Shown here in pieces: positions 1 through 15,843 of a stretch of 21,103 bases of DNA. How positions within the stretch are numbered: position 1 is the stretch's first letter; every line of letters starts with the position of its first letter. Source of the DNA: an uncultured archaeon (GTDB lineage: Archaea; Asgardarchaeota; Lokiarchaeia; Sigyniarchaeales; SOKP01); NCBI GenBank assembly GCA_964525635.1, contig CAZGJX010000081.1, positions 1-21,103 of the forward strand. The letters run 5' to 3'. Made by a program: the position numbers and the translations under genes. The notes below the pieces were generated by a model. That model was not told where the DNA came from and ran no database searches. It saw nothing but the letters and a program-made list of their open reading frames with translations.

Positions 1-410
1 ATAGCATAGAAAATAGCTTCATAAAGAAGATTGAAACTGCGACATAAAGGATTTGCACAGCTCTGTTTTATCATTTAGTATATAGCATAGAAAATAGCTT
101 CATAAAGAAGATTGAAACTGAAATTAATATATGCATATTGTCCAGAGAATTCTAGATAATATTATAGCATAGAAAATAGCTTCATAAAGAAGATTGAAAC
201 ATATCTGTAGGAATATAATCTCCTCCACTTAACGCTAGAATATAGCATAGAAAATAGCTTCATAAAGAAGATTGAAACTATTTCGTCATTATAGAACATA
301 TTGCTCCAATCTTAATAGCATAGAAAATAGCTTCATAAAGAAGATTGAAATTGAATATATACTGGGCTTGTTCCTAATTTGAATGGAGATAAATAGTATA
401 GAAAATAGCT
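1..410 (+). CRISPR. CRISPR array 1 (distal end; probably continues upstream of the window): 5 full repeats plus a truncated terminal repeat, 5 spacers of 36-45 nt
   Basis: 37-nt repeat ATAGCATAGAAAATAGCTTCATAAAGAAGATTGAAAC at 1-37, 82-118, 164-200, 242-278 and 315-351 (last base T). Half repeat ATAGTATAGAAAATAGCT at 393-410. Spacers are 44, 45, 41, 36 and 41 nt. The 3' ATTGAAAC 8-nt handle follows a CTTC-ATAAA-GAAG hairpin. This and the degenerate last repeat indicate + strand transcription. Confidence 0.98.
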
Positions 411-553
411 ATCTTTCGGGTTATGTAAAATTCATAAAAATTAAAATAGTAATAAAGTAATCTAATATATATAATGTAAACAGTGATATATTAATAGAAA
501 AATGCAGTAGTTAAGTGAATAAATATAGATTATTTATATAAGTCAATTTAATA

Positions 554-568
554 CATAAACTTTATATA
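554..568 (+). promoter_or_regulatory. Possible archaeal BRE/TATA promoter of the cas operon
   Basis: CATAAAC-TTTATATA upstream of the first cas gene. Weak evidence because the background is very AT-rich. Confidence 0.25.
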
Positions 569-700
569 TGTCCTTGCTAAAAATAATACTATTAGAGAAA
601 AATCTTCCAAAATCTAATATAAGGAATAATTTTTTGGAATAAGACATAATTAAGAAAAACTTCATTCAAAGTTTTTCAATTATTATCTGGGGTAAGTAAG

Positions 701-1978
701 ATGAATGATGAAGATAAAAAAATTATATTAATTCTTATAATAGGGACTAATCCATTACCTAACTTTATTGTTGCTAAATTTTATATATATCAAATTCGTA
801 AATTAATATTAATCTATTCTGAAGAAAACAACGTACAGGCTGGTACTGGGGACTATACCAATAGCATCCAAGAGGTATTGCCTTTGAATAATGTAGAATT
901 AGAATTAATTTCTTTAGAAGATATTAGTTCTGCCAACCGGATTCGAGAAGATCTACAAAAAAAGCTAAATATTAATCCATACGACCTTATCCATTTAAAT
1001 TATACTGGTGGAACCAAAAGTATGGTGGTCCATATCTATAATTTTATAAAAAAAAAAAATCCTAGAGCATTTTTTTCTTACCTTGATGCACGAAAGTATA
1101 AGATAGTGTATGATAATGGTGATTATTATCCTAAAAATGGTGATTTACGAGACATTATAATCCTAACTATGGACGACCTATTAAAATTACATTTATATAA
1201 GCGAAATGAGAAAACCAAAAAAAGCCCTAATTCGACCGTTCTTGATAAGTTAGATGCTCTCATAAAGAAAGACAAGATCTCGCAATTTATCCGTTGGATA
1301 GAATCAATTGATCCACTATATAAAAGAGAAGAAAAACTCCTCGAAAGAAAAACTAGATTTATCGAAAATAGTAATCATCCTTGCGTTGAGGAGGCAATAA
1401 ATAATTTTGAGAATATGTCTGATTTGGTTTTAGACATATTAAATAGTTTTCCTGAAAAAAAAAGACTTAATAAGCAAAATGATAAAAATTTGTGGATTCC
1501 AGAGGATATTATTTCAAACAAAGAATTTAAGGAAAGAATAAAAGAAACTTTTGAATTTCTAGACGGAAAATGGCTTGAATATTATATATACAATAAGATT
1601 TTATCAATTAAGACTTCTTCTAATGAAAAGATTTCAATTGGTCAATCAATTGAAGCATATAATAAAAAATCAAAAAAATTTGAACTTGATCTGTATATAA
1701 TCAAAGGGTATCAATTATTAGGAATATCAGTGACTACTATAATTAATAATGTTGGTTTATGCAAACATAAAGGATTTGAAATTATACATAGAATTAAACA
1801 AATTGGTGGAGATGAGGGGATTTCAATTCTGATCACAGGGTTGTCTAAAAATGACATCAGGAGTTTGAATGATGATTTAGAATATGCAACTGGAAGTGCA
1901 CACGGACTGGTTTTTGCTTTTGGTATAGAAGATTGGAAAGATATATCAAAAAAGATTGAAGAGGTCTTGAAATTATGA
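701..1978 (+). CDS. can2: CARF-domain cOA-activated nuclease, Can2/Card1 (DUF1887)-like type III ancillary effector
   Basis: N-terminal CARF signatures (IGTNPLPN; HLNYTGGTKSM; SYLDA). C-terminal restriction-endonuclease-like motifs (GKWLEYY, FELDL, ISVTT, CKHKGFE...QIGGDE). ATGA overlap with cas10. Confidence 0.85.
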   Translation: MNDEDKKIILILIIGTNPLPNFIVAKFYIYQIRKLILIYSEENNVQAGTGDYTNSIQEVLPLNNVELELISLEDISSANRIREDLQKKLNINPYDLIHLNYTGGTKSMVVHIYNFIKKKNPRAFFSYLDARKYKIVYDNGDYYPKNGDLRDIIILTMDDLLKLHLYKRNEKTKKSPNSTVLDKLDALIKKDKISQFIRWIESIDPLYKREEKLLERKTRFIENSNHPCVEEAINNFENMSDLVLDILNSFPEKKRLNKQNDKNLWIPEDIISNKEFKERIKETFEFLDGKWLEYYIYNKILSIKTSSNEKISIGQSIEAYNKKSKKFELDLYIIKGYQLLGISVTTIINNVGLCKHKGFEIIHRIKQIGGDEGISILITGLSKNDIRSLNDDLEYATGSAHGLVFAFGIEDWKDISKKIEEVLKL

Positions 1979-3513
1979 CACAAATAAGTGCGGTACTTAT
2001 TGATACAATTGCAATACAAGAATATATTTTTTCAAGTAATAGGTTAAAAAATAATGTTAGCGCATCTTATATTATTAGTAATATTTTTAAAGAAGAATTA
2101 AGATTAGCATTAGAAAGATGTTTTAAATCCACTTATGATTACGATATTTGGAGATCTAAACCTTCTGAGTCTATAATAAGTTCTCTTTCATTTTCCTTCG
2201 AAATAGGATATATTGGAGGAGGAAACGCTTTAATTCTTATTAAAGAGAAACTTAAGGTAAAAGAATTTATAAAGATTTTCAGTTTAATCCTTCTTCAGAG
2301 ATATCCTGGATTAAGAACAGGTTATGGATTAATTTATGATTTTGATTTCTCTAACATTAAAGATTCAATGAAAAGATTGCATTTTATTTTAAAACGCAAT
2401 AAATATAACTATTTTCCAAAAGTCAATTTACTTAAATATGGAATAACTGCGGAATGTCCAGAGTCGGGAGAAAGTGCAGAATTATTCAAAAATGATAAAT
2501 ATCAATTTATTTCTGGTGTAATAAAAGCAAAGATTGATAAAGAAATGATCGCATTGAACTCATTAAGAGAGGAATTTAGCTTTGAACTCAAAGATAAATA
2601 TACATTTACTAATGATCTTGATAATCTTGGAAAACCTGAAGGATTTAATTATATTTCAATAGTTTGTATCGATGGTAATCGTGTTGGCTCTCAAATTAAA
2701 AATTGTACATCCTTGGAAAAAATTCGAGAGACTTCAATAAAAATTGAAAATCTCTTTTTAAGAGCATTTAAAGAAATAATAAGAATAGGGTGCGTAAGGA
2801 ACATTGAAAACAAAATTATAGAGAAGGATGAAGGTTTTGAACTTATACAGGAAAATAATAAAATAATCCTTCCTATCCGACCAATTATTATAGCGGGAGA
2901 TAATATTACATTTGTATGTAATGGAAGACTTGCTTTGTACTTAACAGATTTATATATTAAATCCTTGGTTAGGCTTTCAATATCAGATAATTTTCCTTTA
3001 TCTGCTTGTGCTGGGATATCTATAGTCAAAACTAAATATCCAATTTACAGGGCATATCGAATTGCAGAAGATTTATTAAGACGTGCTAAACGGCTATCCA
3101 GAGAAGAAAAAAATTCAAATTTTATCGATTTTTTTATTTCTACGGGAGGTCTTGGAGGAAATATCCATGAGGATTTTAATAATTACTACGGAGCTTTTGA
3201 AGGAAATGCTCATTTTGGACCTTATAGAATTTCTCAAAAAATTGATGAAAAAAGTGTTATAAATCTCAAAAAAAATATTAAGCAATTTTATACATGGCCT
3301 AAAAATAAGTTGTATAATTTTAGGGAAAAACTTTACGGAAGCAGAGATGAAGCTAGAAAGTATTTGGAAGAATTAAAGGAACAAGGTTGTGTTCTACATG
3401 AATTAGATGGCACACAATACCATATATCCATTTGGGAAAATCAAAAGACACCATATTTTGATCCAATTGATTTATTAGAATTTTATCCATTAAAACTATT
3501 AGAGGATGTTTGA
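1975..3513 (+). CDS. cas10: Type III-D Cas10 large subunit, no HD domain; Palm2 motif reads AGDN
   Basis: IDTIAIQEYIFSSNRL N-terminus, YIGGGNA (Palm1), CIDGNRVG, LPIRPIIIAGDNITFV (GGDD position), LSACAGI...YPIYRAYRIAEDL. The 512-aa length fits HD-less III-D Cas10. Confidence 0.93.
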   Translation: MTQISAVLIDTIAIQEYIFSSNRLKNNVSASYIISNIFKEELRLALERCFKSTYDYDIWRSKPSESIISSLSFSFEIGYIGGGNALILIKEKLKVKEFIKIFSLILLQRYPGLRTGYGLIYDFDFSNIKDSMKRLHFILKRNKYNYFPKVNLLKYGITAECPESGESAELFKNDKYQFISGVIKAKIDKEMIALNSLREEFSFELKDKYTFTNDLDNLGKPEGFNYISIVCIDGNRVGSQIKNCTSLEKIRETSIKIENLFLRAFKEIIRIGCVRNIENKIIEKDEGFELIQENNKIILPIRPIIIAGDNITFVCNGRLALYLTDLYIKSLVRLSISDNFPLSACAGISIVKTKYPIYRAYRIAEDLLRRAKRLSREEKNSNFIDFFISTGGLGGNIHEDFNNYYGAFEGNAHFGPYRISQKIDEKSVINLKKNIKQFYTWPKNKLYNFREKLYGSRDEARKYLEELKEQGCVLHELDGTQYHISIWENQKTPYFDPIDLLEFYPLKLLEDV

Positions 3514-5698
3514 TATGGAATTAACAATAAAAATTTTATCCTATGCTTTAGTTGGATCAGGGGAAGGAACAGGAGTTTTAAATAATGATTGTATTTACGA
3601 CTCTCTTGGGATTCCATATATTCCTGCCCGAAGAATTAAGGGTATATTAAAGGAAATGTGTTATGAAGTGTGTGATATCCTTGGTATAAATAAACAAATA
3701 GTTTTAAATATTTTCGGTGAGAGTGGTTTTAAAAGAGCTAAAATTAATATTCAAAACCTTTATATCAATGATTATGGTCAAATAAAAAAAGAAATAAAAT
3801 ATTTAAGACAAAAAATGCAATATTTCAAGCTCCTTACAAAAAATAAATTAAAATCTTATTATACAACGATTAGGCAACAAATAGCAATTGATGTGAATGG
3901 GATTGCATTATCAAAATCTCTAAGAACTTATAGAGTTTTAAAACCGGGTTTACAATTTAAAACCAATTTCTCTACAAAAAAGCTAACTGAATATGAAATA
4001 GCTCTTCTTTTTTTAGCATGTATCAATTTTAGAAGATTCGGAACATTGAGAAATATTGGGTTTGGGAAAATTGAATGTGTTCTAAATACTAATATAAAGT
4101 TACAAAATGCTATTAAGATGGTTAAAGATTTCGAAAATATAGACAAAAAAATCCCTACTCGTAATAAACAATTTATTCCAAACCTTTCTGGTCATAAAAA
4201 AAGTATGTATTATGTTATAAAAACACTAAATCCAATCATTTTGAGTTCTAATAGAGGAAACTCAAATACTATTATTAGTCAAAAGATTATTCCATCTTCA
4301 ACAATAAAAGGATTACTGGCTAATTTATATATTCAAATAAGTGGATTAAATAATATATCAATACAAGATAATGAACATTTTTATCATATTTTCCTAAAAA
4401 ATGCTTTGAATTTCAACCCTGCCTATCCTTTTGAAAGTAACAAAATATTTTTTCCTCCTCCAGCATTTATTCAAGAAGAAAAAGGAAATACGAGAAATAA
4501 TATTTATAACCTTTTTTTAGATAATGTGGATGAAGAAACAATTCCATTAAATGAATTTATCAATGTAGATAATAACAATATTTTAACTTATTCACCAGAT
4601 TCTATCCAGTTTTTTCATACTGCTATTAATAGACATGCTGATAAATCAAATGAGCCAGAAATTTTTTATTATGAAGCACTTAAAAGGGATCAGCAGTTTA
4701 AGGGAACTATATACGGAGATGAAGGATATTTAGATGAATTTAAAAAGTTTTTTGGTGATAAGTTTATTGCATGGATTGGAAAATCAAAAAGTGCTCAATA
4801 TGGTAAAGTTGAAGTCTTATTTGGGAATATTGAAGATGTAAATGAAAATAATTATGTGGGTGATGAAGAATTTATTATTACAGCAATTTCACCAATAATT
4901 CTTTATAATAATTATGGTTTTCCTGAGTCTTCAATTTCACTTTTAACACAATATCTTGAGACTAAATATAACATAAAAATAAAAGAAGTAAAAGGTTTTG
5001 CGACGAAAAATTATGTAGAGCATTATGTTAATGTTTGGTATTCAAAATCTCCTAGAGATGTTGCTTTTGGAGAAGGATCCTCATTTTTAATTAAATTAGA
5101 TTCATCAATCGATGAGGACATAAATAATATACTAAATAAAATGGAGATTGAAGGATTAGGAAGAGAAAAAGAAAATGGGTTTGGGAAAATAAAAATTAAT
5201 TGGATTACAAGAAAATCTTACCAAAAACAAAGATTAGAATTAAAAGAAGATATTAAAACAACCATTCCAATCCTAAAAACTAAACCCTTAATATGGTTTC
5301 TTTTAAAAACCCAAATTATTGATGCATTTAGAAATGCAGGTTACAAACAGGTCATAATGAAGCGAGATAGTGGTTTGACTATCCCAAATAGTTTAATTGG
5401 GAGGTTAAATGGTATTTTAAATAAATCTAATGATGAAAATTCTTTAAATTCCTTTATTCTTAAAATGGATGAAAAAACTGCTCAGAAAACATTAAAAAAT
5501 GCTTTGCTCTGGAATGATTTATTAAATTTCAAAAAAATTTATTATAAAGTCTATAACAACATAGACTTCTCTGAAAATATAGCTATCGCTAATGAACTTA
5601 GTTTTTCATTAGACGATTATATATTTGAATATCTAAAAGTATATTGGGTGACATTTTTTAGATATATGAGATTGGAAAATAAAAAGAAGGGGATATGA
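3506..5698 (+). CDS. csx10: Cas7-Cas5(Csx10)-Cas11 fusion RAMP protein (type III-Dv-like)
   Basis: N-terminal Cas7 (GSGEG, D.LGIPYIPARRIKG, G-rich loop RNIGFGKI). Central Cas5/Csx10 RAMP (IPSSTIKG, IGKSKSAQYGKV, GLGREKENGFGKI). C-terminal ~130-aa helical Cas11/Csm2-like region (IPNSLIGRL...YWVTFF). Confidence 0.85.
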   Translation: MFDMELTIKILSYALVGSGEGTGVLNNDCIYDSLGIPYIPARRIKGILKEMCYEVCDILGINKQIVLNIFGESGFKRAKINIQNLYINDYGQIKKEIKYLRQKMQYFKLLTKNKLKSYYTTIRQQIAIDVNGIALSKSLRTYRVLKPGLQFKTNFSTKKLTEYEIALLFLACINFRRFGTLRNIGFGKIECVLNTNIKLQNAIKMVKDFENIDKKIPTRNKQFIPNLSGHKKSMYYVIKTLNPIILSSNRGNSNTIISQKIIPSSTIKGLLANLYIQISGLNNISIQDNEHFYHIFLKNALNFNPAYPFESNKIFFPPPAFIQEEKGNTRNNIYNLFLDNVDEETIPLNEFINVDNNNILTYSPDSIQFFHTAINRHADKSNEPEIFYYEALKRDQQFKGTIYGDEGYLDEFKKFFGDKFIAWIGKSKSAQYGKVEVLFGNIEDVNENNYVGDEEFIITAISPIILYNNYGFPESSISLLTQYLETKYNIKIKEVKGFATKNYVEHYVNVWYSKSPRDVAFGEGSSFLIKLDSSIDEDINNILNKMEIEGLGREKENGFGKIKINWITRKSYQKQRLELKEDIKTTIPILKTKPLIWFLLKTQIIDAFRNAGYKQVIMKRDSGLTIPNSLIGRLNGILNKSNDENSLNSFILKMDEKTAQKTLKNALLWNDLLNFKKIYYKVYNNIDFSENIAIANELSFSLDDYIFEYLKVYWVTFFRYMRLENKKKGI

Positions 5699-5701
5699 GA
5701 T

Positions 5702-7042
5702 ATGGATCGACTAACAAGTAAATTAATTTTACAAGGGGAAATTATAAATATTTCTCCATTGGTTATTGGAAGTAATAAAGGTGGTCTAGTAGATGTTGAA
5801 TTAATAAAAAATGAAATTGGTGATTTTTATATTCCAGCTACCTCATTTAAAGGAACTTTAAAACATTATTTATTGTTGAATTTTAAAAAGAGAGTAAAGA
5901 ATTTAGTTAATAAGTATTTAGGTTCAGAGGAAAGTGAGGGAATTTTCATTATACAAGACTTAAAAGCGATTACTTCTATGAATATAACGGTAAGGGACGG
6001 CATTGCAATTGACCAAACAAAGGGAGTTTCAAAAGAAGGGGCAAAATTCAACTATGAAATTTTAGAACCAAATACGAGATTTAAATTAGAAATAGAAATC
6101 GCTATAAATGATTCGATAAATGAGGGTGAAGTAAATAAGTTTCTAAAAACTATTATCGAGGAATTGAACGAAGGACATTTACGGATAGGGGCAATGAATA
6201 CAAAAGGATATGGCAAAATTAAATTAGATAAATTCAGTTTATTTGAATTTAATTTTCCCACAGATGGAGGAGATTGGTTTAATTATTTAATTAATAAATC
6301 CATTGATCCTAAGTTAGAAATATCGCTTAAAGATTATGATTCCTACGAATATATTAAAAATGACAAATGTATATTTAAAATAAGTTTTCAAATTAAGAGC
6401 TCTTTAATCATAGGAGCTACTCCCTCTAATCCTAATGATCCGGATAAAATCCATATACTAAGCAATGGCATACCAGTTCTAACCGGTACGTCAATAAAAG
6501 GCGCACTTAAAGCAAGAGCAATAAAAATTATTAATACGTTAGGTGGAAATGGGGATGAAATGCTAAGGGATCTTTTTGGTTGGATAGATCTTACCAATAA
6601 AAGTAAAACTAAGTATAAGAGTCGTGTTATTTTAAATGATGAAGTTATTGAAAATGTGAATAAAACTAAACATAATAGAATTAAGATTGATAGATTTACA
6701 GGAGGGACGATCATGGGTGCATTATTTAGTTCTCAACCATTATGGCATGAAAATGAAAAAATCAATATTACCTTATCGCTAAAACAAGCAAAAGAATGGG
6801 AAATTGGATTATTATTACAGGTTTTTAAGGATCTTTGGAATGAGGACTTACCCATTGGAGGAGAAATAAATGTTGGGAGAGGTTTGCTCATAGGGGACCT
6901 AATAACGATTATATTTAATAACGAAAAATTTGAGATTTCCAAGAATAAAGAAATTCTTGCAATTGTTGGAGATAAAAATAAACTTGAAAATTTTTCTCAA
7001 GCATTAATTAATGAAATTGGAGATGGAAAAAATGAAAAATGA
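5702..7042 (+). CDS. csm3: Cas7-Cas7 (Cas7-2x, Csm3-group) double-RAMP backbone subunit
   Basis: Two RAMP repeats. First: SPLVIGS...YIPATSFKG...RDGIAID...IGAMNTKGYG. Second: SSLIIG...VLTGTSIKG...RIKIDRFTGG...IGGEINVGRG. Confidence 0.9.
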   Translation: MDRLTSKLILQGEIINISPLVIGSNKGGLVDVELIKNEIGDFYIPATSFKGTLKHYLLLNFKKRVKNLVNKYLGSEESEGIFIIQDLKAITSMNITVRDGIAIDQTKGVSKEGAKFNYEILEPNTRFKLEIEIAINDSINEGEVNKFLKTIIEELNEGHLRIGAMNTKGYGKIKLDKFSLFEFNFPTDGGDWFNYLINKSIDPKLEISLKDYDSYEYIKNDKCIFKISFQIKSSLIIGATPSNPNDPDKIHILSNGIPVLTGTSIKGALKARAIKIINTLGGNGDEMLRDLFGWIDLTNKSKTKYKSRVILNDEVIENVNKTKHNRIKIDRFTGGTIMGALFSSQPLWHENEKINITLSLKQAKEWEIGLLLQVFKDLWNEDLPIGGEINVGRGLLIGDLITIIFNNEKFEISKNKEILAIVGDKNKLENFSQALINEIGDGKNEK

Positions 7043-7616
7043 TGAAAATTTATATAAAGTTGAGTCTATTCTTTCGCTTAGTAAGAAGGAAACTGGGTTC
7101 AAGGAGAGAATATCTGAAATTGTTTTGTCTAAATTAGATAAAGGTTCAATTATTTGTTGGTTAAATCATACTTTGTTATTTGGGATAATAAAAGAAGGCA
7201 ATATAAGGATATATCCAAAAGATTTACCAATTTTTGAAAAACATTTAATTCGATTAAGGGCATTTAATGAAATGGAAGAATTATATATCTGGAAAGATTG
7301 CAATGATTTTCATTATAGATATAGAATTGACAAAGATCATACAGGACAAGAACAAGATTTTATAGAAGCTCATCAAATATTATTAGGGACAAAAATAACC
7401 CCTCTTGAGAATGAATTTTCAAAAGTTTCAGAGAAAAGAGGAGTTCAGTTTATCATCCCTTCAAAGTGGCTTAGCAATAAACAAATAGATAATAATCATA
7501 AAATTGTATTAAATACACGAAATTATATAGTATATAATGATATTGGCCAAGCAAGTTTCTTTGATAGTAGATTTCTTAGTATAGGATTAGAGGAGGTAGA
7601 ATTGAATGAAGAATGA
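7032..7616 (+). CDS. csx19: Type III-D subunit Csx19 (TIGR03984-like)
   Basis: LRAFNEMEELYIWK and RNYIVYNDIGQASFFDSRF motifs, located between Cas7-2x and Cas7-insertion. ATG 7032 (GGAG upstream, overlaps the previous stop) is preferred over 7011. Confidence 0.88.
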   Translation: MKNDENLYKVESILSLSKKETGFKERISEIVLSKLDKGSIICWLNHTLLFGIIKEGNIRIYPKDLPIFEKHLIRLRAFNEMEELYIWKDCNDFHYRYRIDKDHTGQEQDFIEAHQILLGTKITPLENEFSKVSEKRGVQFIIPSKWLSNKQIDNNHKIVLNTRNYIVYNDIGQASFFDSRFLSIGLEEVELNEE

Positions 7617-9267
7617 AGCGAAATCCCCCTACAATTTTATTCCTTTAAATGATAAGGTTGTTAAAGTAGAACAACCTGATTTCGATTTTAGTGTGTATCA
7701 TAAAGATAGGTATAATGGATATTTGCGCATAAAGCTGGAAACTAAAACCCCACTTTTCATAAAAGGAGAAGAATACAATTTCTTTTCAATTGGTGATAAT
7801 ATTAAGATTCCAGGGAGTTCATTACGAGGCATGATACGATCATTATTAGAAATTGTTACATATAGTAAATTAAACTATGTTGATACTAAAAGAAGATTTT
7901 ATTATAGATGGGTAGCAGGATCATTCTCAACACTTCGAAAATATTATGCTAAAAAAATGAAAGGTGTCCAAGGAGGTTATCTATCTTTTAACACTCAAGA
8001 TGATGAATATTTTATTACACCAGCAAAATCAATGAATGGAAAGACATTTACTAAGTTTCGAGATAATTCTAAACAATTTAAGTATGAAAAACAATATAAT
8101 GGAAGTTGGAAGGTCTGGAGTGGTATGATTCAAGGTAAAAAACATAATTGGATAATTAATAAGCCAGATTTATCAATAAAAAAAATTTTTTTATCAAAAA
8201 GAGATTTGAATTGTTATATTAATGATGAAAATCGTAATTTCATTTTTGAAATTGACAACGAGAAAAAAGGATTACTTGAAATGGCTAACGATCACACCTT
8301 ATTCCCTAACGGAGTTCCAATTTTTTATAACAAATTAAAAAATTTAGTTTTATTATTTGGACATACTAAGAACTTCCGTATTCCATACCTAAAAACTATA
8401 AATAATCATATTCCAGAAAATCTATCCTCGGATCAAATTACAGACATGACTGAAGCGTTATTTGGGAAAAAAAATCAATGGCAGACAAGAATTTTCTTTG
8501 AAGATGCTGATTTACTACCAAATCAAGATAATATCTTTCTTAAAGAGAGTTCTCCAAAAATTTTAACCTCCCCTAAACCTACTTGTTTTCAACATTATTT
8601 AGAACAACCAAATAAATCTGATAAGAATAAAATCAAACATTGGGATGACTCTAACATTAAGATTAGAGGCAGGAAATTATATTGGCATAGAAATCCTCCA
8701 ATGAAAGAAAGTGAAACGTCATGGAGTGAAGGAAGTATCCTAATTGATACCCAACATATAAAAATAAAACCATTAAGGAAAGATTTAAATTTTACATCAA
8801 GAATACGGTTTGAAAATCTTTCAAAAATAGAGCTTGGTGCCTTGTTATTTGTTCTTAATTTACCAAATAATTGCTTTCACAAAATTGGAATGGGAAAACC
8901 TCTAGGATTAGGTTCGATACATATAAAAACCGAATTGTTTTTAATTGATAGAATAAAGCGATACAGCTCTTTATTTAAAGGTTTAAATTGGCAACAAGGA
9001 TTAGTCAAGTCTGATTTCAATAAGTTTAAAAATGATTTTGAAAAATTTATGCTTGATAATATAACTGAGAAAGAACGAAATAATGCAGAGGTTCTCTGGG
9101 ATACACCTATTTTAAAAACTTTAAAATTAATGCTTGACTGGAAAAATACTAATCAAAAGGACTGGTCTAAAAGAACAAAGTATTTGGATTTAAACGATTT
9201 TAAAAATAGGAGAATTTTGAAAGAACCAGAGGAAATTGTCGGTTTCAATAATCATAATCCTAATTAG
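7606..9267 (+). CDS. cas7: Cas7 with large insertion (TIGR03986-like RAMP), type III-D
   Basis: SPYNFIPL, TPLFI, IPGSSLRGMIRS, LTSPKPT..HYL, RGRKLYWH, IRFENLS..ELGALL, HKIGMGKPLGLGSI. Confidence 0.92.
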   Translation: MKNEAKSPYNFIPLNDKVVKVEQPDFDFSVYHKDRYNGYLRIKLETKTPLFIKGEEYNFFSIGDNIKIPGSSLRGMIRSLLEIVTYSKLNYVDTKRRFYYRWVAGSFSTLRKYYAKKMKGVQGGYLSFNTQDDEYFITPAKSMNGKTFTKFRDNSKQFKYEKQYNGSWKVWSGMIQGKKHNWIINKPDLSIKKIFLSKRDLNCYINDENRNFIFEIDNEKKGLLEMANDHTLFPNGVPIFYNKLKNLVLLFGHTKNFRIPYLKTINNHIPENLSSDQITDMTEALFGKKNQWQTRIFFEDADLLPNQDNIFLKESSPKILTSPKPTCFQHYLEQPNKSDKNKIKHWDDSNIKIRGRKLYWHRNPPMKESETSWSEGSILIDTQHIKIKPLRKDLNFTSRIRFENLSKIELGALLFVLNLPNNCFHKIGMGKPLGLGSIHIKTELFLIDRIKRYSSLFKGLNWQQGLVKSDFNKFKNDFEKFMLDNITEKERNNAEVLWDTPILKTLKLMLDWKNTNQKDWSKRTKYLDLNDFKNRRILKEPEEIVGFNNHNPN

Positions 9268-9327
9268 TTTATATTTTTCTATTATAAATCTAATGATAAT
9301 GATAATAATTTTTTTATCTTATTTAAT

Positions 9328-9364
9328 CCCTCTGAGAGAAAAGCTTCATAAATAAGATACATTT
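9328..9364 (+). repeat. Isolated degenerate CRISPR repeat A
   Basis: AGAGAAAAGCTTCATAAATAAGAT (9335-9358) matches repeat positions 8-31 at 21/24 ungapped, and positions 15-31 at 16/17. It starts 60 nt after the last cas stop. Confidence 0.7.
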
Positions 9365-9483
9365 TGTTTTAATTAATTTTCATTGTTATAATTTTTTGAA
9401 GTAGAAAGGATTTAAATTTTTGTATTGAATTGTTATTCATACCAAATGATAAAAAAAAATATTATTTTAATGTGGTTAAATAT

Positions 9484-11979
9484 ATGAATAAGAAATTAAT
9501 AGCTTATTATTTATTCTTAATTCTCCTGATATCTGGTTTTATTAATAACTTAGGAATAGTAAATGCATTAAATGAACCAAAATTAGCCAAAGAATATACT
9601 AATACGGAAGAACTTATATTCAAGCAAACTTGGACCAATATTGAATCTAAGGTTCAAAAACCAACTCCTCCTGATGTTTGGGATGTTATAAATAATATAA
9701 CATTATTTTCAAATCCGAATGATACAGTATATCTTGGAGATGATATTATCCCAATATCCCTAATGGGGGGTATTCATTGGACTCATATGGAAATAAACCT
9801 AACAGCTATTTTTGTTTGGGACGATCATGATCCATTAGATGCGGGTGAGATTTATGTCCGCTGGATTCCAAATTATTGGATAGGTCTTCCAGAGTATGAT
9901 ATAAATAACAATTGGCAAAATTACCAATCGATCGATGATTTAACCATTGATCATGATCTATACGTTGAGAGTTCTCATTACTCGATAAGTAGTGCCTCAC
10001 CAAGTTGGTATAACTTTACACAACCGATTACACTCTTTAATGACTCGACAATTTTAAATAATATGCTTATTGAAGTCTTTGATTATGATCCAACTTCTGC
10101 AGACGAATCTCTTGGAGGTGTGTATTGGAACTATATCAATCCAACGGATCTTGAAGGATATTGGATAATTAATCTAGAAGATGCTGATATAGCAATTACA
10201 GTAACTCTTTATGGAACTGATAATACATTTACAGCTAAAAATTTAACAGAGCTTTATCAACCTTTTCTATGTGATAATGATGATACAATTCATACTGCTG
10301 ATCCTAATGGTCTATTTGCTCGAGTAATACATGGTTATGATTCTTCAATTGGTAGAAATGCTTTTTGTATTCAATATTTATATTTTTGGAATGAAGTATG
10401 GCTTGATGGATTTTGGACGGATCAACTTATACATTATAATGATTATGAATTAGTACAAGTTTATTTAAACTTTAGTTATACTGGAGGACCTGTTGCGTAT
10501 CGATTTGTATTTGATAATCATGATTATTATACTAATTCCACAACAGAATGGCGAGATTCCATGGAATATGCAATATATGAGTGGGATACTATTGAAACTG
10601 GAATTCTGACCAAGGAAATCTCTAATTCTATTGAATTACAAACCCTATTAGGTGAGAGATATACAGCAAATTATGAATATAAAAATCTTGACATTTATAC
10701 TTCAAGTCTTTGTGGTTGTTATGGTGGAGTTATATCAATGATGTTAACAATTGAAACATATAATCATCAATTTGCTGTTGGGAATACAGGAGGAGATATT
10801 CTTGGACAATATGAAATAGCCCCATTCACAGATTCTATAATTTATAATTGTTATGGATTGTTGAATTTATCTTTTACGCAAGGAGTACATGAAATAAATA
10901 ATGAAATTATACCTAAATATGCTCCTTTTGCATACGATATATTGAATGTATTTGAAGTTCCCTACATTCATTCAAATTATGCAGATTTAATGCAACAAGC
11001 AGCTCAATTCCAGGGTAATATTCAATCTGGTGGGGGTTTTATTAATGTTGATAAAAATATAACTGTGACTATTGACATTCCTATTCAAACAACAGTTGAT
11101 CTCCCTGATATCTTAACTCCTGAAGACAGTCTTATAACAATTTTAGAATCTTTATTAGATACATCCAGTACTATCCTAACTATTGAGTATTTCTTTAATA
11201 TTACCGCAGATTATGATCTTTGGTTTATACATTATAATTTTCATACAATTATTCAAAATAAAATTGTTATAGATTTTTCTAATCCAATAATACAATTATT
11301 AAATGACTTTATTAGTTTTGTTGACGATATAGAATACTCAATATCTTTATTAAGTGGAATGTTGACTATTGAGTCTAATTTTACTCCTCAATTACTTGGG
11401 GAAATTCTTAATTGCAACATAACAGTTCATATAGATGAAATATTAAAGTACTATTATCCCCCTTTAGGTTATATTCTTAAATTCTTTTTTGATGATATTT
11501 ATTTTAAAATTAATCCTGTAATCAGCGGTTATATAGATTCAGATGTGTATTTAGGAGATTCAATACAAACACTTCATTGGGATACAACTACTAAGAATTT
11601 TAATTTGGACTTGGATATACCTGACACTAGCTATGGAAGTTCTCTTTCTCTTACTTTAGATAATTTTCGATATGGATTAAATTTTCAAGTTGGATGGATT
11701 ATTGGTTATGATACTAGTTATTTTATATCATGGCTTTTTGGAGATGGAGATGAATATCTTCTTGGGATTTGGCCGGATTTAAGTTATGATATGACAGCTC
11801 TTAATGAAGGGATTATATTAAATACTTGGGAGGCTTCGAATGGGCTTTGGAGAAAAGAAAATACAAATAATTTAGGTTCAAATATTCCTTTTGGAAATAT
11901 AATTGTGATATCTGGATTATTTATTTCAAATACCATATATATAGCCTATAAAAAGAGGAGAAAATGCAAAATAAAATAA
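9484..11979 (+). CDS. Large secreted, membrane-anchored surface protein with a C2-like segment, an NPP1/Vps62-like motif and a C-terminal TM+basic sorting tail
   Basis: Signal peptide MNKKLIAYYLFLILLISGF (ATG 9484 preferred over TTG 9430). Motifs IEVFDYDPTSADESLG and CIQYLYFW...HYNDYELVQV. C-terminus GSNIPFGNIIVISGLFISNTIYIAYKKRRK. Confidence 0.8.
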   Translation: MNKKLIAYYLFLILLISGFINNLGIVNALNEPKLAKEYTNTEELIFKQTWTNIESKVQKPTPPDVWDVINNITLFSNPNDTVYLGDDIIPISLMGGIHWTHMEINLTAIFVWDDHDPLDAGEIYVRWIPNYWIGLPEYDINNNWQNYQSIDDLTIDHDLYVESSHYSISSASPSWYNFTQPITLFNDSTILNNMLIEVFDYDPTSADESLGGVYWNYINPTDLEGYWIINLEDADIAITVTLYGTDNTFTAKNLTELYQPFLCDNDDTIHTADPNGLFARVIHGYDSSIGRNAFCIQYLYFWNEVWLDGFWTDQLIHYNDYELVQVYLNFSYTGGPVAYRFVFDNHDYYTNSTTEWRDSMEYAIYEWDTIETGILTKEISNSIELQTLLGERYTANYEYKNLDIYTSSLCGCYGGVISMMLTIETYNHQFAVGNTGGDILGQYEIAPFTDSIIYNCYGLLNLSFTQGVHEINNEIIPKYAPFAYDILNVFEVPYIHSNYADLMQQAAQFQGNIQSGGGFINVDKNITVTIDIPIQTTVDLPDILTPEDSLITILESLLDTSSTILTIEYFFNITADYDLWFIHYNFHTIIQNKIVIDFSNPIIQLLNDFISFVDDIEYSISLLSGMLTIESNFTPQLLGEILNCNITVHIDEILKYYYPPLGYILKFFFDDIYFKINPVISGYIDSDVYLGDSIQTLHWDTTTKNFNLDLDIPDTSYGSSLSLTLDNFRYGLNFQVGWIIGYDTSYFISWLFGDGDEYLLGIWPDLSYDMTALNEGIILNTWEASNGLWRKENTNNLGSNIPFGNIIVISGLFISNTIYIAYKKRRKCKIK

Positions 11980-12027
11980 ATTATTAAAATCTTTTATTCC
12001 TTCTTTATTTTTTTATTGACTCCATAT

Positions 12028-12064
12028 CGAATATAGAAATAAGGTTCATATCCAAAATTGAAAC
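12028..12064 (+). repeat. Isolated degenerate CRISPR repeat B
   Basis: CGAATATAGAAATAAGGTTCATATCCAAAATTGAAAC is 26/37 identical (ungapped) to the array repeat and keeps an intact ATTGAAAC 3' handle. Confidence 0.75.
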
Positions 12065-12171
12065 CAAAATCCAATTTTTTGTAAAAATTTTTATTAAAAA
12101 CATGAAAATATTTTTAAATGATTTTATTTAATAGTTATTTAACTTCTTAACCAAAAGAGATGGGGAATAAA

Positions 12172-12801
12172 ATGGAAAAGACAAAAGAATTTAATTTAAT
12201 AATCAAATAATTCGTATTTTTATCAGGAATTTGGTTTTTTATACTTCATTTGCAGACAGTTTCTATTTATATTATAACCGATTTACCGGGTTATTACAAT
12301 AAAGTATTATCTTTTGGATTCTTCTTTAGAGATTTAGAATTATCAGGAGTTGGTTTTGAAATTCAATTTAATGAGATTCTCAGTGCGATTTGTGTTTTTA
12401 TATTTACATTTGGATTTGTATTATCTTTCTTCTATATAAAAAGAGACGGAATATCCTTTGTAAGAAGATCCTTAAATTTAATAAGTATTTCTTTTATTTT
12501 GATTGGAGGGATAGGATTTGTTAAAAACAATGAAATCAGCCTATCTTATAAAGAATATCAACCAACAAGTGTTGTTCTATTTCTGAAAGAATGGGATATA
12601 CACCCTGTTTTTTATATTATTTTCTTAATCATAGCTTTATTATTCGTAGAATATATCATTTTAGAAAATACAAGACTCCTAACTAAAGACCGTATTAAAA
12701 CTCAATATAAAAATGGATGGAGATATTGTCGATCCTGTGGTGTAGAGATTGTTGATCCAAAAGGGGAATTTTGTTCGAAATGTGGCATCAAAATCAAATA
12801 A
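12172..12801 (+). pseudogene. Multi-pass membrane protein with C-terminal zinc ribbon; in-frame TAA at 12208-12210 (open part 12250-12801)
   Basis: GGGGA then ATG 12172 reads MEKTKEFNLIIK*FVFLSGIWFFILHLQTVS..., in frame with the 183-aa ORF. Several hydrophobic helices. C-terminal YCRSCG...FCSKCG. It could still be expressed from a downstream start. Confidence 0.65.
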
Positions 12802-12832
12802 TTCAAATTTTAAACTTCAATTTCTCTTTATT

Positions 12833-12869
12833 TTAGCATAAAAAATAGTTACTTAAAGAAAATTGTGTT
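12833..12869 (+). repeat. Isolated degenerate CRISPR repeat C
   Basis: TTAGCATAAAAAATAGTTACTTAAAGAAAATTGTGTT is 27/37 identical ungapped (27/32 over positions 2-33). Confidence 0.8.
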
Positions 12870-12959
12870 TATGAGAGAGTGATTCTGTTTTTTTATTTAA
12901 ATATAAGAATTGGAATATAAGTATAGTTTTTATAAGTATGTGTAAAAAAAAAGGATGAT

Positions 12960-13148
12960 ATGGTATCTAAAAGAGAAGTATTTACAAGGAAATGTAATTC
13001 ATGTCCTGTTCAATGCATTGGTCCTTGTATGAATCCTGAAGTAGAATCAAAAAAAGATAGCATAGTTTGGTGTAATGTGAAATTATGGATTTTAACACAA
13101 TATTTAAAAAAAAAAATTGATAATAGATTAAGTGAATCAGAGAAATGA
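12960..13148 (+). CDS. Small Cys-rich protein (CxxCxxxCxGxC...C)
   Basis: 62 aa with KCNSCPVQCIGPC. TTTTATAA TATA-like box about 25-30 nt upstream. ATGA overlap with the next gene. Confidence 0.55.
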   Translation: MVSKREVFTRKCNSCPVQCIGPCMNPEVESKKDSIVWCNVKLWILTQYLKKKIDNRLSESEK

Positions 13149-15076
13149 ATAATACTTCAAATATAGGATTAAAAGCTAGGAATTTAATAACTCTAAAGTC
13201 AATTATTCCTATTCCAAATTTCATTATTATTAATCCTGACGATCTTCTTCAAATCTATAGTACTTTAGAGATTCCAAAGAATTTAAACCCTGATAAACCT
13301 GAAGAGATAAAAAAACTATCTGAAGAACTTATAAAAAATATACATAAAATCCCTTCTGAAATATTTAATTCAATTATAAAGAAAATAAAGAATGCAAAAC
13401 TTTAATATCCCCTTATAATACGATCATGCGCTTCAATTGAGGATGTGAATATTAACTATAATGTCTTGGCAGGTATTTTTGAATCAATAGGACCAATTAA
13501 AGGAAAAAAAGAGATAGAACAAGGAATACTTGAGGTAATAAAATCTTTTTATTCTCCAAAAGCATTATTTCAAATGTTAATATTGGGTATATCGATAAAA
13601 TCTGTATTAATGGGAATCATTATCCAGGAGTACATAGATGGAGAATATTATGGTGTAATATTCTCACATAATCCTTTAACTGGAAAAAAATAATTAATCA
13701 TTGAATATTCAGAAAAACCAGAAGGAGTTACTTCAGGAAAAGGAAGAACAACTATAATATATGAATCTAAAATTGATGATACTACAAGTAATATTTATAG
13801 TCTAAATGAATCCTTAATTTCACAAATTAAAAACTATATTGGGATTTGTTTAGATTTAATGAAACATCCAATAGATATGGAATTTGTGATAAAAGATAAT
13901 GAATTATATATTTTACAGGTAAGAGAATTAATTTTACATAGTCAAAATAAAAAAAAAGTAATTCTTGATAAAAATCTTATAGATATTGCAGAAGGTATTG
14001 TATCTTCTCCTGGATTTTGTAATGGTATTGGAAAGTATATAGATTCATATTCAGAAGAAATAATAGAAAAAGTCAAAGATAATGAAATTATTCTCTCTGA
14101 AGTACTAAATTTGGGAGTATTTCCTTGGATCGCAAATGCTAAGGGATTTTGTACAATAGCATCTGGTTTTGCATCACATGCTTCTATTATTGCTCGACAA
14201 ATGAGAAAACCTATGTTAATTTCGTTAAATCTATCTAAAGATCAATTGAAATTACTTGATGGGAAGGAATTAATTATAAATGCTGGAGAATCTAAAGGAT
14301 ATCTCTTATCCAGTAATGATATTAAAAATATAATAAGTCACAAAAAGAAATCTAATTTCTATTTCTTAAATTGGACATTATCAGATTTATTTTCTTTTAA
14401 GTTAAATGAGATAAAATCGATTATTTTTAGAAATAATCACATATTATTAGTAGAGAAACCGAATGAAGTAGTTGTTTTATGTGATCCTGAAGAAAATATT
14501 TATTTAATCGATCAGGTGAAAACCTATTTTAAATCTTTATATCCTGATAAAATAATCAGATTTGGATATATAGATGAATATTATGAATTATGGCCAATAT
14601 TAGTTATATATCGTTCAGAGAAAAAGGATTTTAAATTCCTTGTTAGTATTAGAGAATTATTTGAGGATATGAAGTTTGATGAGATCAAAAACTTAATTAA
14701 GAATTTAAAGTGTGAGATCAATAAACTACACATAAACTTACAGCAAAAGATTATAAAAAGTTCCATTGACCAAATGAATGACTTATTATTCTTGTATAAT
14801 ATAATCCAACAAATCAGACTTAAATCTACAGTACTCACAGCAATTAATCGTTTATTATTTGATTTTGGCGATCGTTCTTTAAGCGAAATATTAAACCATA
14901 ATTTTGAGGATCCTGCGGTCGTTTTATCTCAATTAGAACAAGGTATTCCATTAAAAAGTCTAGGAATCCAAGATTATAAATCTTTTTCTATCATAGAATT
15001 CTATCTTAAACTTATAAAATTAAAAAATAACATGGATATTCGATTTGATGAGAATAAATTAGATCAGTATATGTAA
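13145..15076 (+). pseudogene. PEP-synthase/PPDK-family dikinase-like gene (ATP-grasp PPDK_N domain + phospho-His swivel domain + unknown C-terminal domain), broken by two in-frame TAA stops
   Basis: ORFs 13145-13405, 13445-13693 and 13859-15076 share one frame, and read-through gives continuous motifs: IGLKARNL..L, IPNFII, *YPLIIRSCASIED...AGIFES, MGIIIQEYIDGEYYGVIFSHNP, *LIIEY...EGVTSG, HPIDMEF...LYILQVR, GIVSSPGFCNG, SGFASHASIIARQMRKP. Stops at 13403-13405 and 13691-13693. A possible frameshifted tail runs to 15204. Confidence 0.88.
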
Positions 15077-15244
15077 TATATGATATGATACAGAAAACCT
15101 CTAAATTGAATAGGAAAGATTTTGGATCATGGGATATTATGCTTTTTAAAATATCTAAAATCCTTGGTATTAAGAATTATTTATTTGACTCTGAATATGA
15201 TTAATAATAGCAAAATTTCATTTCTAATAGATAATATCCATTAG

Positions 15245-15437
15245 ATAATAGAGAAAATAGTTTCATAAAGAAGATTAAAATCCAATCAATAGGTCAATTA
15301 TCTGGTAGCATTCTTCCTTTTAGATAGCATAGAAAATAGCTTCATAAAGAAGATTGAAATGATATAGTAGATTTAATTGTTAATAAATCTATTATTAGTC
15401 ATAGCATAGAAAATAGCTTCATACAGAAGAATGAAAT
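15245..15437 (+). CRISPR. CRISPR mini-array 2: 3 repeats and 2 spacers (42 and 40 nt), same repeat as array 1
   Basis: Repeats at 15245-15281 (31/37), 15324-15360 (36/37) and 15401-15437 (34/37). Confidence 0.93.
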
Positions 15438-15559: not shown

Positions 15560-15760
15560 ATGACTACAAATCTTAAAAAAGAAGTTATAGCTCTAATAAA
15601 AAAGTTACCAGAAGAAGTTACCCTTGATGATATTATGTATCATCTTTATGTTAAAAAGAAGATATTAATAGGACTTCAAGAAGTTAATCAAGACAAATCA
15701 ATTCCTCACGAAGAAGTCATGGATAATGCTAAGATGAGACTGGAAAAATGGTTAAAATAG
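15560..15760 (+). CDS. Putative type II antitoxin (partner of a RelE/ParE toxin)
   Basis: 66 aa, LKKEVIALIKKLPEEVTLDDIMYHLYV...GL.....IPHEEV, typical of small antitoxins that precede ParE/RelE. It overlaps the toxin start. Confidence 0.75.
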   Translation: MTTNLKKEVIALIKKLPEEVTLDDIMYHLYVKKKILIGLQEVNQDKSIPHEEVMDNAKMRLEKWLK

Positions 15761-15843
15761 AATGGGCACCTACAGCAGAAAAAGATCTCTATGAAATAAT
15801 CGATTATATTACTCAATACTAACCTTATTTTGTTGAGGAATAA
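15748..15843 (+). pseudogene. Truncated RelE/ParE-family toxin remnant
   Basis: MVKIEWAPTAEKDLYEIIDYITQY*PYFVEE* matches the ParE N-terminus (W...A..DL.EI.DYI). TAA at 15820-15822; the rest of the gene is missing. Confidence 0.75.

Follow-up and report, generated by a model that had tools for sequence, protein, structure and literature searches.

Decayed CRISPR repeats separate accessory gene modules at the leader-distal end of a type I-B array in a Lokiarchaeon

The DNA analysed here (21,103 nucleotides of contig CAZGJX010000081.1, hereafter the window, from an uncultured salt-marsh archaeon of the Lokiarchaeia) holds the old end of a type I-B CRISPR array, distal to the leader, beyond which accessory gene modules lie between solitary, decayed copies of the CRISPR repeat. 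This fossil end has probably served as a landing pad and recombination scaffold, where ordinary insertion plus recombination between repeats would account for the layout with no dedicated capture enzyme. The features of the window are the following.

1..351, + strand: five near-perfect 37-nt repeats with spacers of 36-45 nt, the leader-distal end of the canonical array
393..410, + strand: half-repeat, 5' positions 1-18 (17/18) of a sixth repeat at normal spacing, 3' half missing
701..9267, + strand: type III-D operon
701-1978, + strand: CARF-PD-D/ExK protein (Card1-like)
1975-3513, + strand: Cas10-like protein
3506-5698 and 5702-7042, + strand: RAMPs
7011-7616, + strand: Csx19
7606-9267, + strand: RAMP
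9328..9364, + strand: degenerate repeat A, 23/37 overall, 21/24 over positions 8-31, both ends lost
9484..11979, + strand: module A, an apparently intact 831-aa protein of no Pfam family
12028..12064, + strand: degenerate repeat B, 26/37, with a broken hairpin and the 3' tag preserved
12172..12801, + strand: module B, gene for a membrane protein with a zinc ribbon at the C-terminus, stop at codon 13
12833..12869, + strand: degenerate repeat C, 27/37, in register with repeat 133-169 of the same-genus contig G001:C190
12948..13148, + strand: module C, 3' remnant (aa 377-442, compared with G001) of a radical-SAM gene
13145..15204, + strand: module C, broken PPDK_N/PEP-utiliser gene, with an intact 685-aa copy in G001
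15245..15437, + strand: leaderless mini-array, repeats 31/37, 36/37 and 34/37, spacers of 42 and 40 nt
15560..15820, + strand: antitoxin-like gene of 66 aa, with its partner reduced to a 23-codon stub

The five repeats at 1-351 succeed one another at a pitch of 73-82 nt with unique spacers, the regular spacing of a CRISPR array, and the repeat carries a visible Cas6-type hairpin and an 8-nt 3' tag. The leader and three identical repeats sit not in the window but on contig C240, and C240 is probably continuous with the window contig (C81), judging by the identity of the repeats. This leader is conserved across C240, G001 and G017, and an ordinary cas1-cas2-cas4 module adjoins it. A preliminary description of the window, made from its sequence, had suggested looking for nearby cas1/casposase or tyrosine recombinase genes. 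The former exists by the leader, cas1 and cas4 being carried by contig C197 of the same genome; the only full-length tyrosine recombinase of the genome lies on another contig, plus a fragment (hits on C14 and C211 only), and no recombinase was found in the window or in any module.

The repeats at 9328, 12028, 12833 and 15245 are co-oriented on the + strand and begin 60, 48, 31 and 40 nt past the preceding stop, with segments of 2663, 768 and 2375 bp between successive copies. These values, like the match counts, were given correctly in the preliminary description, and our scan of the window, which detected no copy right of 15.5 kb nor on the - strand, agrees with it on this point as well. Chance matches were assessed with a position weight matrix trained on the genus copies of the repeat, the background being the 2,388 intergenic gap-strands of 100-400 nt elsewhere in the genome. 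Scores at least as high as those of A, B and C occurred in 5, 1 and 0 of them, confirming that equal-scoring matches are rare. With an independent family-level matrix, B and C were again among the best (24 and 21 positions in the genome scored at least as high, true repeats counted), and A ranked lower (54 positions). Repeat A taken alone is the weakest of the three copies; its core is the sole match of at least 21/24 in the genome apart from true repeats. Misassembly was ruled out by independent metagenome contigs from four salt-marsh runs, which cross all three junctions with 0-1 letter different. These results support the solitary copies as true CRISPR repeats that prolong the array at its leader-distal end.

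The suggestion of one ancestral array holds in so far as the solitary repeats continue it. The half-repeat at 393 keeps repeat positions 1-18 and the copy at 9328 only positions ~8/15-31, so the two are complementary halves with an overlap of 4-11 nt. This indicates that the type III-D operon lies inside a split repeat and not between two whole duplicated repeats. No close DNA match to the operon was found among 153 other genomes of the order.

The genes between the repeats, previously taken to be apparently complete, are in part dead. Gene B, whose true start is at 12172, is interrupted at codon 13, where a paralogue on contig C25, not flanked by repeats, reads through. In module C the 62-aa open reading frame corresponds to the C-terminal 66 residues of a radical-SAM protein (442 aa), whose gene has lost about 1.3 kb compared with G001, and the PPDK-like gene is broken by in-frame stops (13403, 13691 and 15074) and ends in a frameshifted tail. 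Both gene B and the genes of C are pseudogenes. Homologues of protein A (~60% identity) lie in the variable parts of other genomes, for the most part with no repeats beside them, and the ESM Atlas returned no usable match for it. The full two-gene pair corresponding to the unit at 15560..15820 is present on contig C192, and this unit is 94% identical to a copy in G002 with no repeat immediately upstream. No terminal direct or inverted repeats longer than 12 nt (IS-like ends) were found in the window modules, and module C had no DNA match beyond its own genus or genome (154 genomes). Searches with peptide patterns through genome, metagenome and viral contigs yielded no donor, nor did an exact-pattern search find the repeat in viral contigs; with no near-identical donor for any module, the entry route of the window modules is not visible from donors.

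The same layout is found again on the downstream side of canonical type I-B arrays in genera g1 and g3, with chains in G001, G002 and G150; in G150, the best case, four toxin-antitoxin (TA) pairs each sit between repeats. Among the high-identity alignment ends, ~7 of ~26 (tallied by hand, in genomes that are kin and not independent) lie at most 5 nt from a repeat in each of the two partners, beyond which the DNA differs. Junctions at a repeat are as follows.

G001/L111: right end of module C
G001/G003: HEPN-MNT pair, 96% identity
G001: same-genome duplication beginning at a repeat, 91%
G017: same-genome duplication beginning at a repeat, 89%
G150: duplication, 91%
G001 5398/C45: homology ends at a repeat
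Window 15401/L111: homology ends at a repeat

The neighbours of module C differ among G000, G001 and contig L111, and L111 has one repeat (the last) after this module where the window has three. The shuffled order of cassettes proposed earlier as a check was encountered. Breakpoints between relatives with different module order fall at repeats, but not exclusively there, since homology also ends away from them (window 15543/G002, L111 537 and C36/G001). The pattern supports repeat-bounded shuffling of modules. Plain spacer turnover would also be expected to make homology stop at a repeat. Homologous cargo elsewhere is mostly without flanking repeats, which speaks against Cas1 insertion or a dedicated recombinase. 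The gene capture platform proposed earlier is supported as regards modules that are bounded by repeats and change neighbours there, but not as regards a dedicated capture enzyme.

Whole operons are found in the modules, their stops lying 7-60 nt away from a repeat, and TA pairs are over-represented among them. In the 26 long intervals the cargo is on the strand of the repeats in ~10, on the opposite strand in 3, mixed in 11 and without a call in 2, and module flanks span 7-1577 nt. This is not the integron pattern of mostly single, co-oriented, short-flanked genes; the separators found between modules are CRISPR repeats, and an integron integrase was absent from G000, G001, G002, G150 and G017 (best TIGR02249 score 55 bits, cut-off 265).

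Long intervals make up 2 of the 328 between near-perfect repeats and 21 of the 60 with a decayed flank (two intervals having been reclassified by hand), and long inserts are not concentrated leader-proximally between perfect repeats. One of the two, in G020, is a split spacer with a 22-bp duplication. Contig G024:C467 carries an 877-bp gene-bearing insert between repeats of 35/36 and 36/36 with no internal duplication, an arrangement that Cas1 capture would give. A search of 154 genomes gave no DNA match to the young inserts of G020 and G024 beyond the genus or genome that carries each. Given these proportions and the split spacer, capture of mega-spacers by Cas1 is unsupported; neither this mechanism nor a dedicated recombinase, both put forward in the preliminary description, is supported by long intervals that mostly adjoin decayed repeats, the lack of an integrase and a III-D operon set in half-repeats. 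Nor were empty sites or excised circles recovered: none was clean in the salt-marsh contigs, which drop rare variants, so that this does not argue against their existence. The candidate joints listed match over just 20-29 nt on a side or are of low depth, and are probably artefacts.

Shuffling without a dedicated enzyme is favoured because the III-D operon lies in a split repeat, the G020 insert in a split spacer, and few long intervals lie between young repeats. An active system is unlikely, if conceivable: in some Lokiarchaeia the CRISPR repeat would have been co-opted as the att site of a cassette system, in effect a CRISPR-derived superintegron, with Cas1, or an integrase supplied in trans by a mobile element, taking up, excising and reordering TA, defence and entire cas modules. 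Rather unlikely is the use of a short core within the repeat as attB by the integrase of a mobile element, the modules being remnants of such elements. The complementary halves at 393 and 9328 would fit it as a hybrid attL/attR pair, prophage AP1.1 of Streptococcus pyogenes offers a precedent (bioRxiv 10.1101/2020.10.09.333658), and a metagenome contig with a tyrosine recombinase carries pairs of the repeat whose 5' ends diverge (L101/L107). In repeats located after a long segment it is mainly the first 9 nt that are lost (identity of 0.65-0.72, against 0.81-0.95 elsewhere, a measure partly biased by the way repeats were detected), but such 5' decay is also expected under relaxed selection; moreover, the modules and the window lack a recombinase, and the other junctions have nearly whole repeats on both sides and not halves. 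We consider it distinctly unlikely that Cas1-Cas2 integrated occasional kilobase fragments at the leader with duplication of the repeat, useful or addictive ones being kept and pushed distally. Near-full repeats do bracket the modules at B, C and 15245 (modules A-C), as near-perfect ones do the G024:C467 insert, the cas1-cas2-cas4 module adjoins the leader, and single large pseudo-spacers have been published (SiL-E1, PMC3718332; 899 bp in S. solfataricus locus F, PMC4390879). Against this, 326 of the 328 near-perfect-repeat intervals are normal spacers and the exception in G020 represents a spacer that was split, the repeats around the III-D operon are halves, Cas4 occurs together with spacers of 34-45 nt, and random fragments would seldom yield whole operons ending so close to a repeat. 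No cas1 was detected in G150 (92% complete) or G002 (98% complete), which hold the two richest chains outside the window genome.

There is little to recommend the retention of solitary repeats and mini-arrays as RNA signals, either Cas6 cleavage sites within cargo transcripts or sources of CreTA-like RNAs repressing TA or cas promoters. In relatives the hairpin and 3' tag of first and solitary repeats are better kept than the 5' end, and mini-arrays lie just upstream of TA pairs in G000, G002, G102 and G017; in the window, however, none of A, B and C has an unbroken hairpin, the cargo beside B and C is dead, and the mini-array spacers gave no convincing self-target or promoter target in the locus or genome (scattered AT-rich seed matches, at low power). 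Equally improbable is an origin as leftovers of several separate leader-plus-array units in a defence island. This is true in part for relatives, some of whose "mini-arrays" are separate arrays with their own duplicated leaders: three arrays of G020 each have a homologous 220-540-bp leader (81-85% identity), and G150 has a duplicated leader-like 520 bp ahead of two repeats. One repeat of C36 is in the opposite orientation. The window repeats, by contrast, are all co-oriented, the half-repeat at 393 keeps the normal spacing of the main array, and the copies at A, B, C and 15245 start shortly after a stop with no similarity to the leader upstream when the window was compared with it.

The scaffold reading can be set out as four steps. 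Accessory modules from a mobile gene pool would enter the array end occasionally and by mixed routes, through insertion into a spacer or crossover at short homology within a repeat. Judging from known array biology, each insert would cut the downstream repeats off the leader transcript, and these would decay. Recombination between direct repeats, a documented cause of deletion in archaea (PMC4390879), would then remove the short spacers between them and delete, duplicate or swap repeat-bounded modules, leaving solitary repeats between modules; the breakpoint pattern is observed, and the enzyme is presumed. TA and defence modules would resist loss and accumulate, and unselected cargo such as B and C would become pseudogenes.

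On this reading CRISPR arrays may serve Asgard archaea in a second capacity: accessory genes, a whole type III-D operon among them, would gather and be reshuffled at the dead ends of the arrays. Since standard CRISPR finders miss solitary repeats, such arrangements may be widespread yet have escaped notice. Junctions bounded by repeats offer exact PCR targets for testing array-mediated gene flow. Were a dedicated enzyme responsible after all, nature would have a novel way of inserting kilobase DNA into a site of 37 bp.

Our literature search, which covered few subscription papers, found nothing relevant on repeat-bracketed cassette chains or Lokiarchaeal cases. CreTA-type mini-arrays are short degenerate arrays beside toxins. 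In the Sulfolobales, vapBC pairs are interspersed in CRISPR-Cas regions and are thought to stabilise them (PMC4390879). The window resembles both in having TA pairs packed into CRISPR-Cas islands and short degenerate arrays near toxins, but here each TA pair is bracketed by repeats and no self-targeting spacer was found. The large pseudo-spacer SiL-E1 in a Sulfolobus array (Jaubert et al. 2013, PMC3718332) and the 899-bp insert in S. solfataricus locus F (PMC4390879), for which faulty processing or spacer-guided recombination has been proposed (PMC3718332, PMC4390879), are likewise gene-bearing DNA between two CRISPR repeats of an archaeal host. Those are single plasmid fragments between perfect repeats, whereas here chains of three to six modules with decayed repeats recur, shuffled, in several genera. 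With prophage AP1.1, whose integration target is a type II-A repeat (Varble et al., bioRxiv 10.1101/2020.10.09.333658), the window would share a CRISPR repeat as integration point, a split repeat and silenced downstream spacers; unlike that case, it has no prophage or integrase, and only the 393/9328 pair looks split. Sedentary chromosomal integrons and CALINs, archaeal ones included (Ghaly et al. 2022, PMC9668308), differ in that their separators are attC sites, those found here being CRISPR repeats; here no IntI reached the TIGR02249 cut-off, and the modules reach 9-14 kb, are often multi-gene, lie in both orientations and have flanks of 50-1200 nt. They are alike in forming a chain of small TA-rich accessory modules with a repeated separator and an order that varies between relatives. 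The layout converges on the superintegron plan, with TA pairs as presumed stabilisers.

The genome that holds the window (contig C81, entire) is 4.45 Mb in size with 27% GC, and DNA of the window was matched in salt-marsh metagenomes. Seven clustered differences from the best-covering metagenome contig were seen at 3163-3198, within the Cas10-like gene. The window contains the following CRISPR features:

1-351: end of a canonical array, five repeats
701-9267: type III-D operon (Card1-like CARF nuclease, Cas10-like, three RAMP genes and Csx19)

A leader with three identical repeats was located on contig C240, which probably adjoins the window at a join absent from the assembly, and cas1 and cas4 were located on contig C197. 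In the relative G001 the orthologues of the C197 cas genes make up a type I-B operon, which terminates at the leader; therefore, the window repeats head away from the leader and all loci treated here are leader-distal. Five further dispersed repeat copies are present on contig C36 of the same genome. On this contig (23197-26037; L042/L043) cas3 lies 80 bp from a solitary repeat of opposite orientation, and the I-B cas7/cas8b genes, upstream of cas3 in G001, have no DNA match in the window's genome. The repeat-bearing island of C36 also contains, as judged by eye, IS fragments and an ORF resembling a group II intron reverse transcriptase (2654-4823), and two or three highly degenerate repeat-like sequences lie 5' of another Cascade-like operon on contig C194 (50-200).

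The coordinates, match counts, distances and segment lengths first reported for the degenerate repeats A (9328), B (12028) and C (12833) were all reproduced. A PWM scan of the rest of the genome, covering 2,388 intergenic gap-strands, found five that reached the score of A, one that of B and none that of C. A second, independent PWM, trained on eleven canonical repeat types found within the family, agreed, and A again came out weakest. Independent confirmation of repeat C comes from G001, where a clear repeat lies in register with it. The window carries no copies to the right of 15.5 kb, as previously described, and none on the minus strand. Misassembly of the junctions was ruled out, as contigs from independent runs cross them.

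The preliminary description was largely right, but needs correction on the cargo genes, taken as apparently complete, and on the repeats flanking the III-D operon. Most of the cargo is dead: codon 13 of gene B is a stop, a 62-aa ORF represents the tail of a radical-SAM gene that is otherwise deleted, and three stops and a frameshift interrupt the PPDK-like gene. The operon is bordered by complementary halves overlapping by 4-11 nt, the copy at 393 matching only repeat positions 1-18 and that at 9328 only about 8/15-31. This is suggestive of one split repeat; the same picture could also arise from two truncations that occurred independently.

Lack of flanking repeats around homologous cargo, part of what was named at the outset as counting against gene capture, holds for most homologues, but in relatives the neighbours do change at repeats. 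The surroundings of gene A homologues are repeat-free at 6 of 7 loci, and neither the gene B paralogue on contig C25 nor most TA homologues have a repeat close by. This indicates that the cargo comes from a general accessory pool. The 831-aa product of 9484-11979 belongs to a Lokiarchaeia family with 31 homologues, some with PKD domains, located in variable regions beside defence-type genes; it has no match in Pfam, PADLOC or Atlas. In the intact module C of G001 (L045:445-3827) the radical-SAM gene, coupled to the PPDK-like kinase, weakly matches the prokaryotic viperin model (PADLOC pVip, E 8e-16). This pair, possibly devoted to defence or nucleotide modification, occurs in 2 of 154 genomes of the order and is broken in the window's genome.

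The repeat family is present in 24 of 135 genomes of the host's family. Plain long arrays were found in G019, G021, G060, G061 and G063, and the window-like layout recurs in g1 and g3. The ten-repeat array of G001 leads into an AbrB-VapC-like pair and two repeats. Next come a transporter with a TA pair, then three repeats, then module C in intact form (radical SAM and PPDK-like) and one repeat; other genes then extend to a HEPN-MNT-like pair and one repeat more. G002 carries TA pairs, and also an XPB-DUF790 pair, between mini-arrays. In G150 a 19-repeat array precedes an inverted RAMP/Cas10-type operon; behind five further repeats come four TA pairs (three HEPN/MNT, one AbrB-PIN), every one of them flanked by repeats; the same region (C6 15503-26595; L074/L075) contains a duplicated 520-bp leader-like stretch closing with a perfect single repeat. 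Cargo orientation in the relatives is mixed.

Modules are shuffled at the repeats. Upstream of module C lie module B in the window, a spacer-repeat in G001 and an unrelated gene in contig L111; downstream of it lie, in the same order, the mini-array, unrelated genes and a single repeat. The L111 repeat is identical to the one at 15401, and the 110 bp after it are those that come next in the window. With repeats masked, and contig ends and G020 leaders left out, about 7 of about 26 high-identity alignment ends were found, by hand count, to lie 5 nt or less from a repeat in each partner, the two sequences differing past that point. Among them are same-genome duplications in G001, G017 and G150 that start or stop exactly at a repeat. 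Since the repeats are kilobases apart, this share is far above chance; any repeat-repeat recombination would leave it. Other ends lie away from repeats (window 15543 against G002, L111 537, C36 against G001). Insertions of IS or MITE type are common as well.

These observations probably reflect a mixed process, which fits most of the evidence. Modules would enter a neutral array end by several routes, repeats uncoupled by insertion would decay, recombination between repeats, presumably enzyme-driven, would trim spacers and relocate modules, and selection may retain addictive cargo such as the TA pairs. Co-option of the repeat as the att site of an active cassette system, driven by Cas1 or an integrase, appears unlikely. 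Rare mega-capture by Cas1 predicts that the youngest long inserts lie between perfect repeats. After removal of one assembly gap and one interval with a partial repeat, 326 normal spacers and 2 long intervals had both flanks at ≥34/36, and 21 of 60 intervals with a decayed flank were long. One of the two long intervals, in G020:C20 (L054:332-1023; also G041:C224), measures 692 bp: 7 nt and a 22-nt sequence open it, and a second copy of the 22-nt sequence plus 8 nt close it. A 655-bp unit with a 22-bp duplication thus interrupts a spacer of 37 nt. The inserted gene encodes 195 aa, and the direct repeat spans its own first seven codons; this points to single-crossover integration rather than Cas1, as if a one-gene circle had met a matching spacer. 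The other long interval, compatible with Cas1 and the best candidate for an oversized spacer, is an insert of 877 bp that carries one 158-aa gene and lies between near-perfect repeats of an active-looking array (G024:C467; L088:1163-2039); no donor was found for it. No cas1 match was obtained in G150 and G002 (92% and 98% complete, respectively), which is not proof of loss. Cas1 capture, as originally proposed, stays unproven and was judged less likely than the mundane route, long intervals being rare between near-perfect repeats; it is quite improbable.

An AP1.1-like integrase exploiting the repeat core is improbable too, if a little less so. In its favour, a contig with a tyrosine recombinase bears repeat pairs with divergent 5' ends. 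The element concerned (Ga0180438 contigs L101, L107 and L104) also has histone-fold and RHH genes, and its several two-repeat mini-arrays, of the window's repeat family, face either way and have spacers 19-45 nt long. Of the nearby genes suggested at first, cas1 was found on C197, but no recombinase in the modules; five genomes tested yielded no integron integrase. Very little probability attaches to dispersed separate arrays. Some mini-arrays of G020 and G150 do carry their own duplicated leaders, and a chain therefore need not be one array throughout; in the window, however, there is neither room for a leader nor leader similarity before A, B, C or 15245. An RNA-signal function of the repeats is just as hard to credit, with the window hairpins broken and no spacer target found.

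The mixed process resembles the working of a chromosomal integron array (PMC9668308), but the window's system falls outside that class. Single large inserts between repeats have been published for Sulfolobus (PMC3718332; PMC4390879), and in S. pyogenes a phage has been described that integrates into repeats (bioRxiv 10.1101/2020.10.09.333658); chains of repeat-bracketed modules were not reported in the literature searched. The architecture is real and recurrent, and is a variant of known array behaviour.
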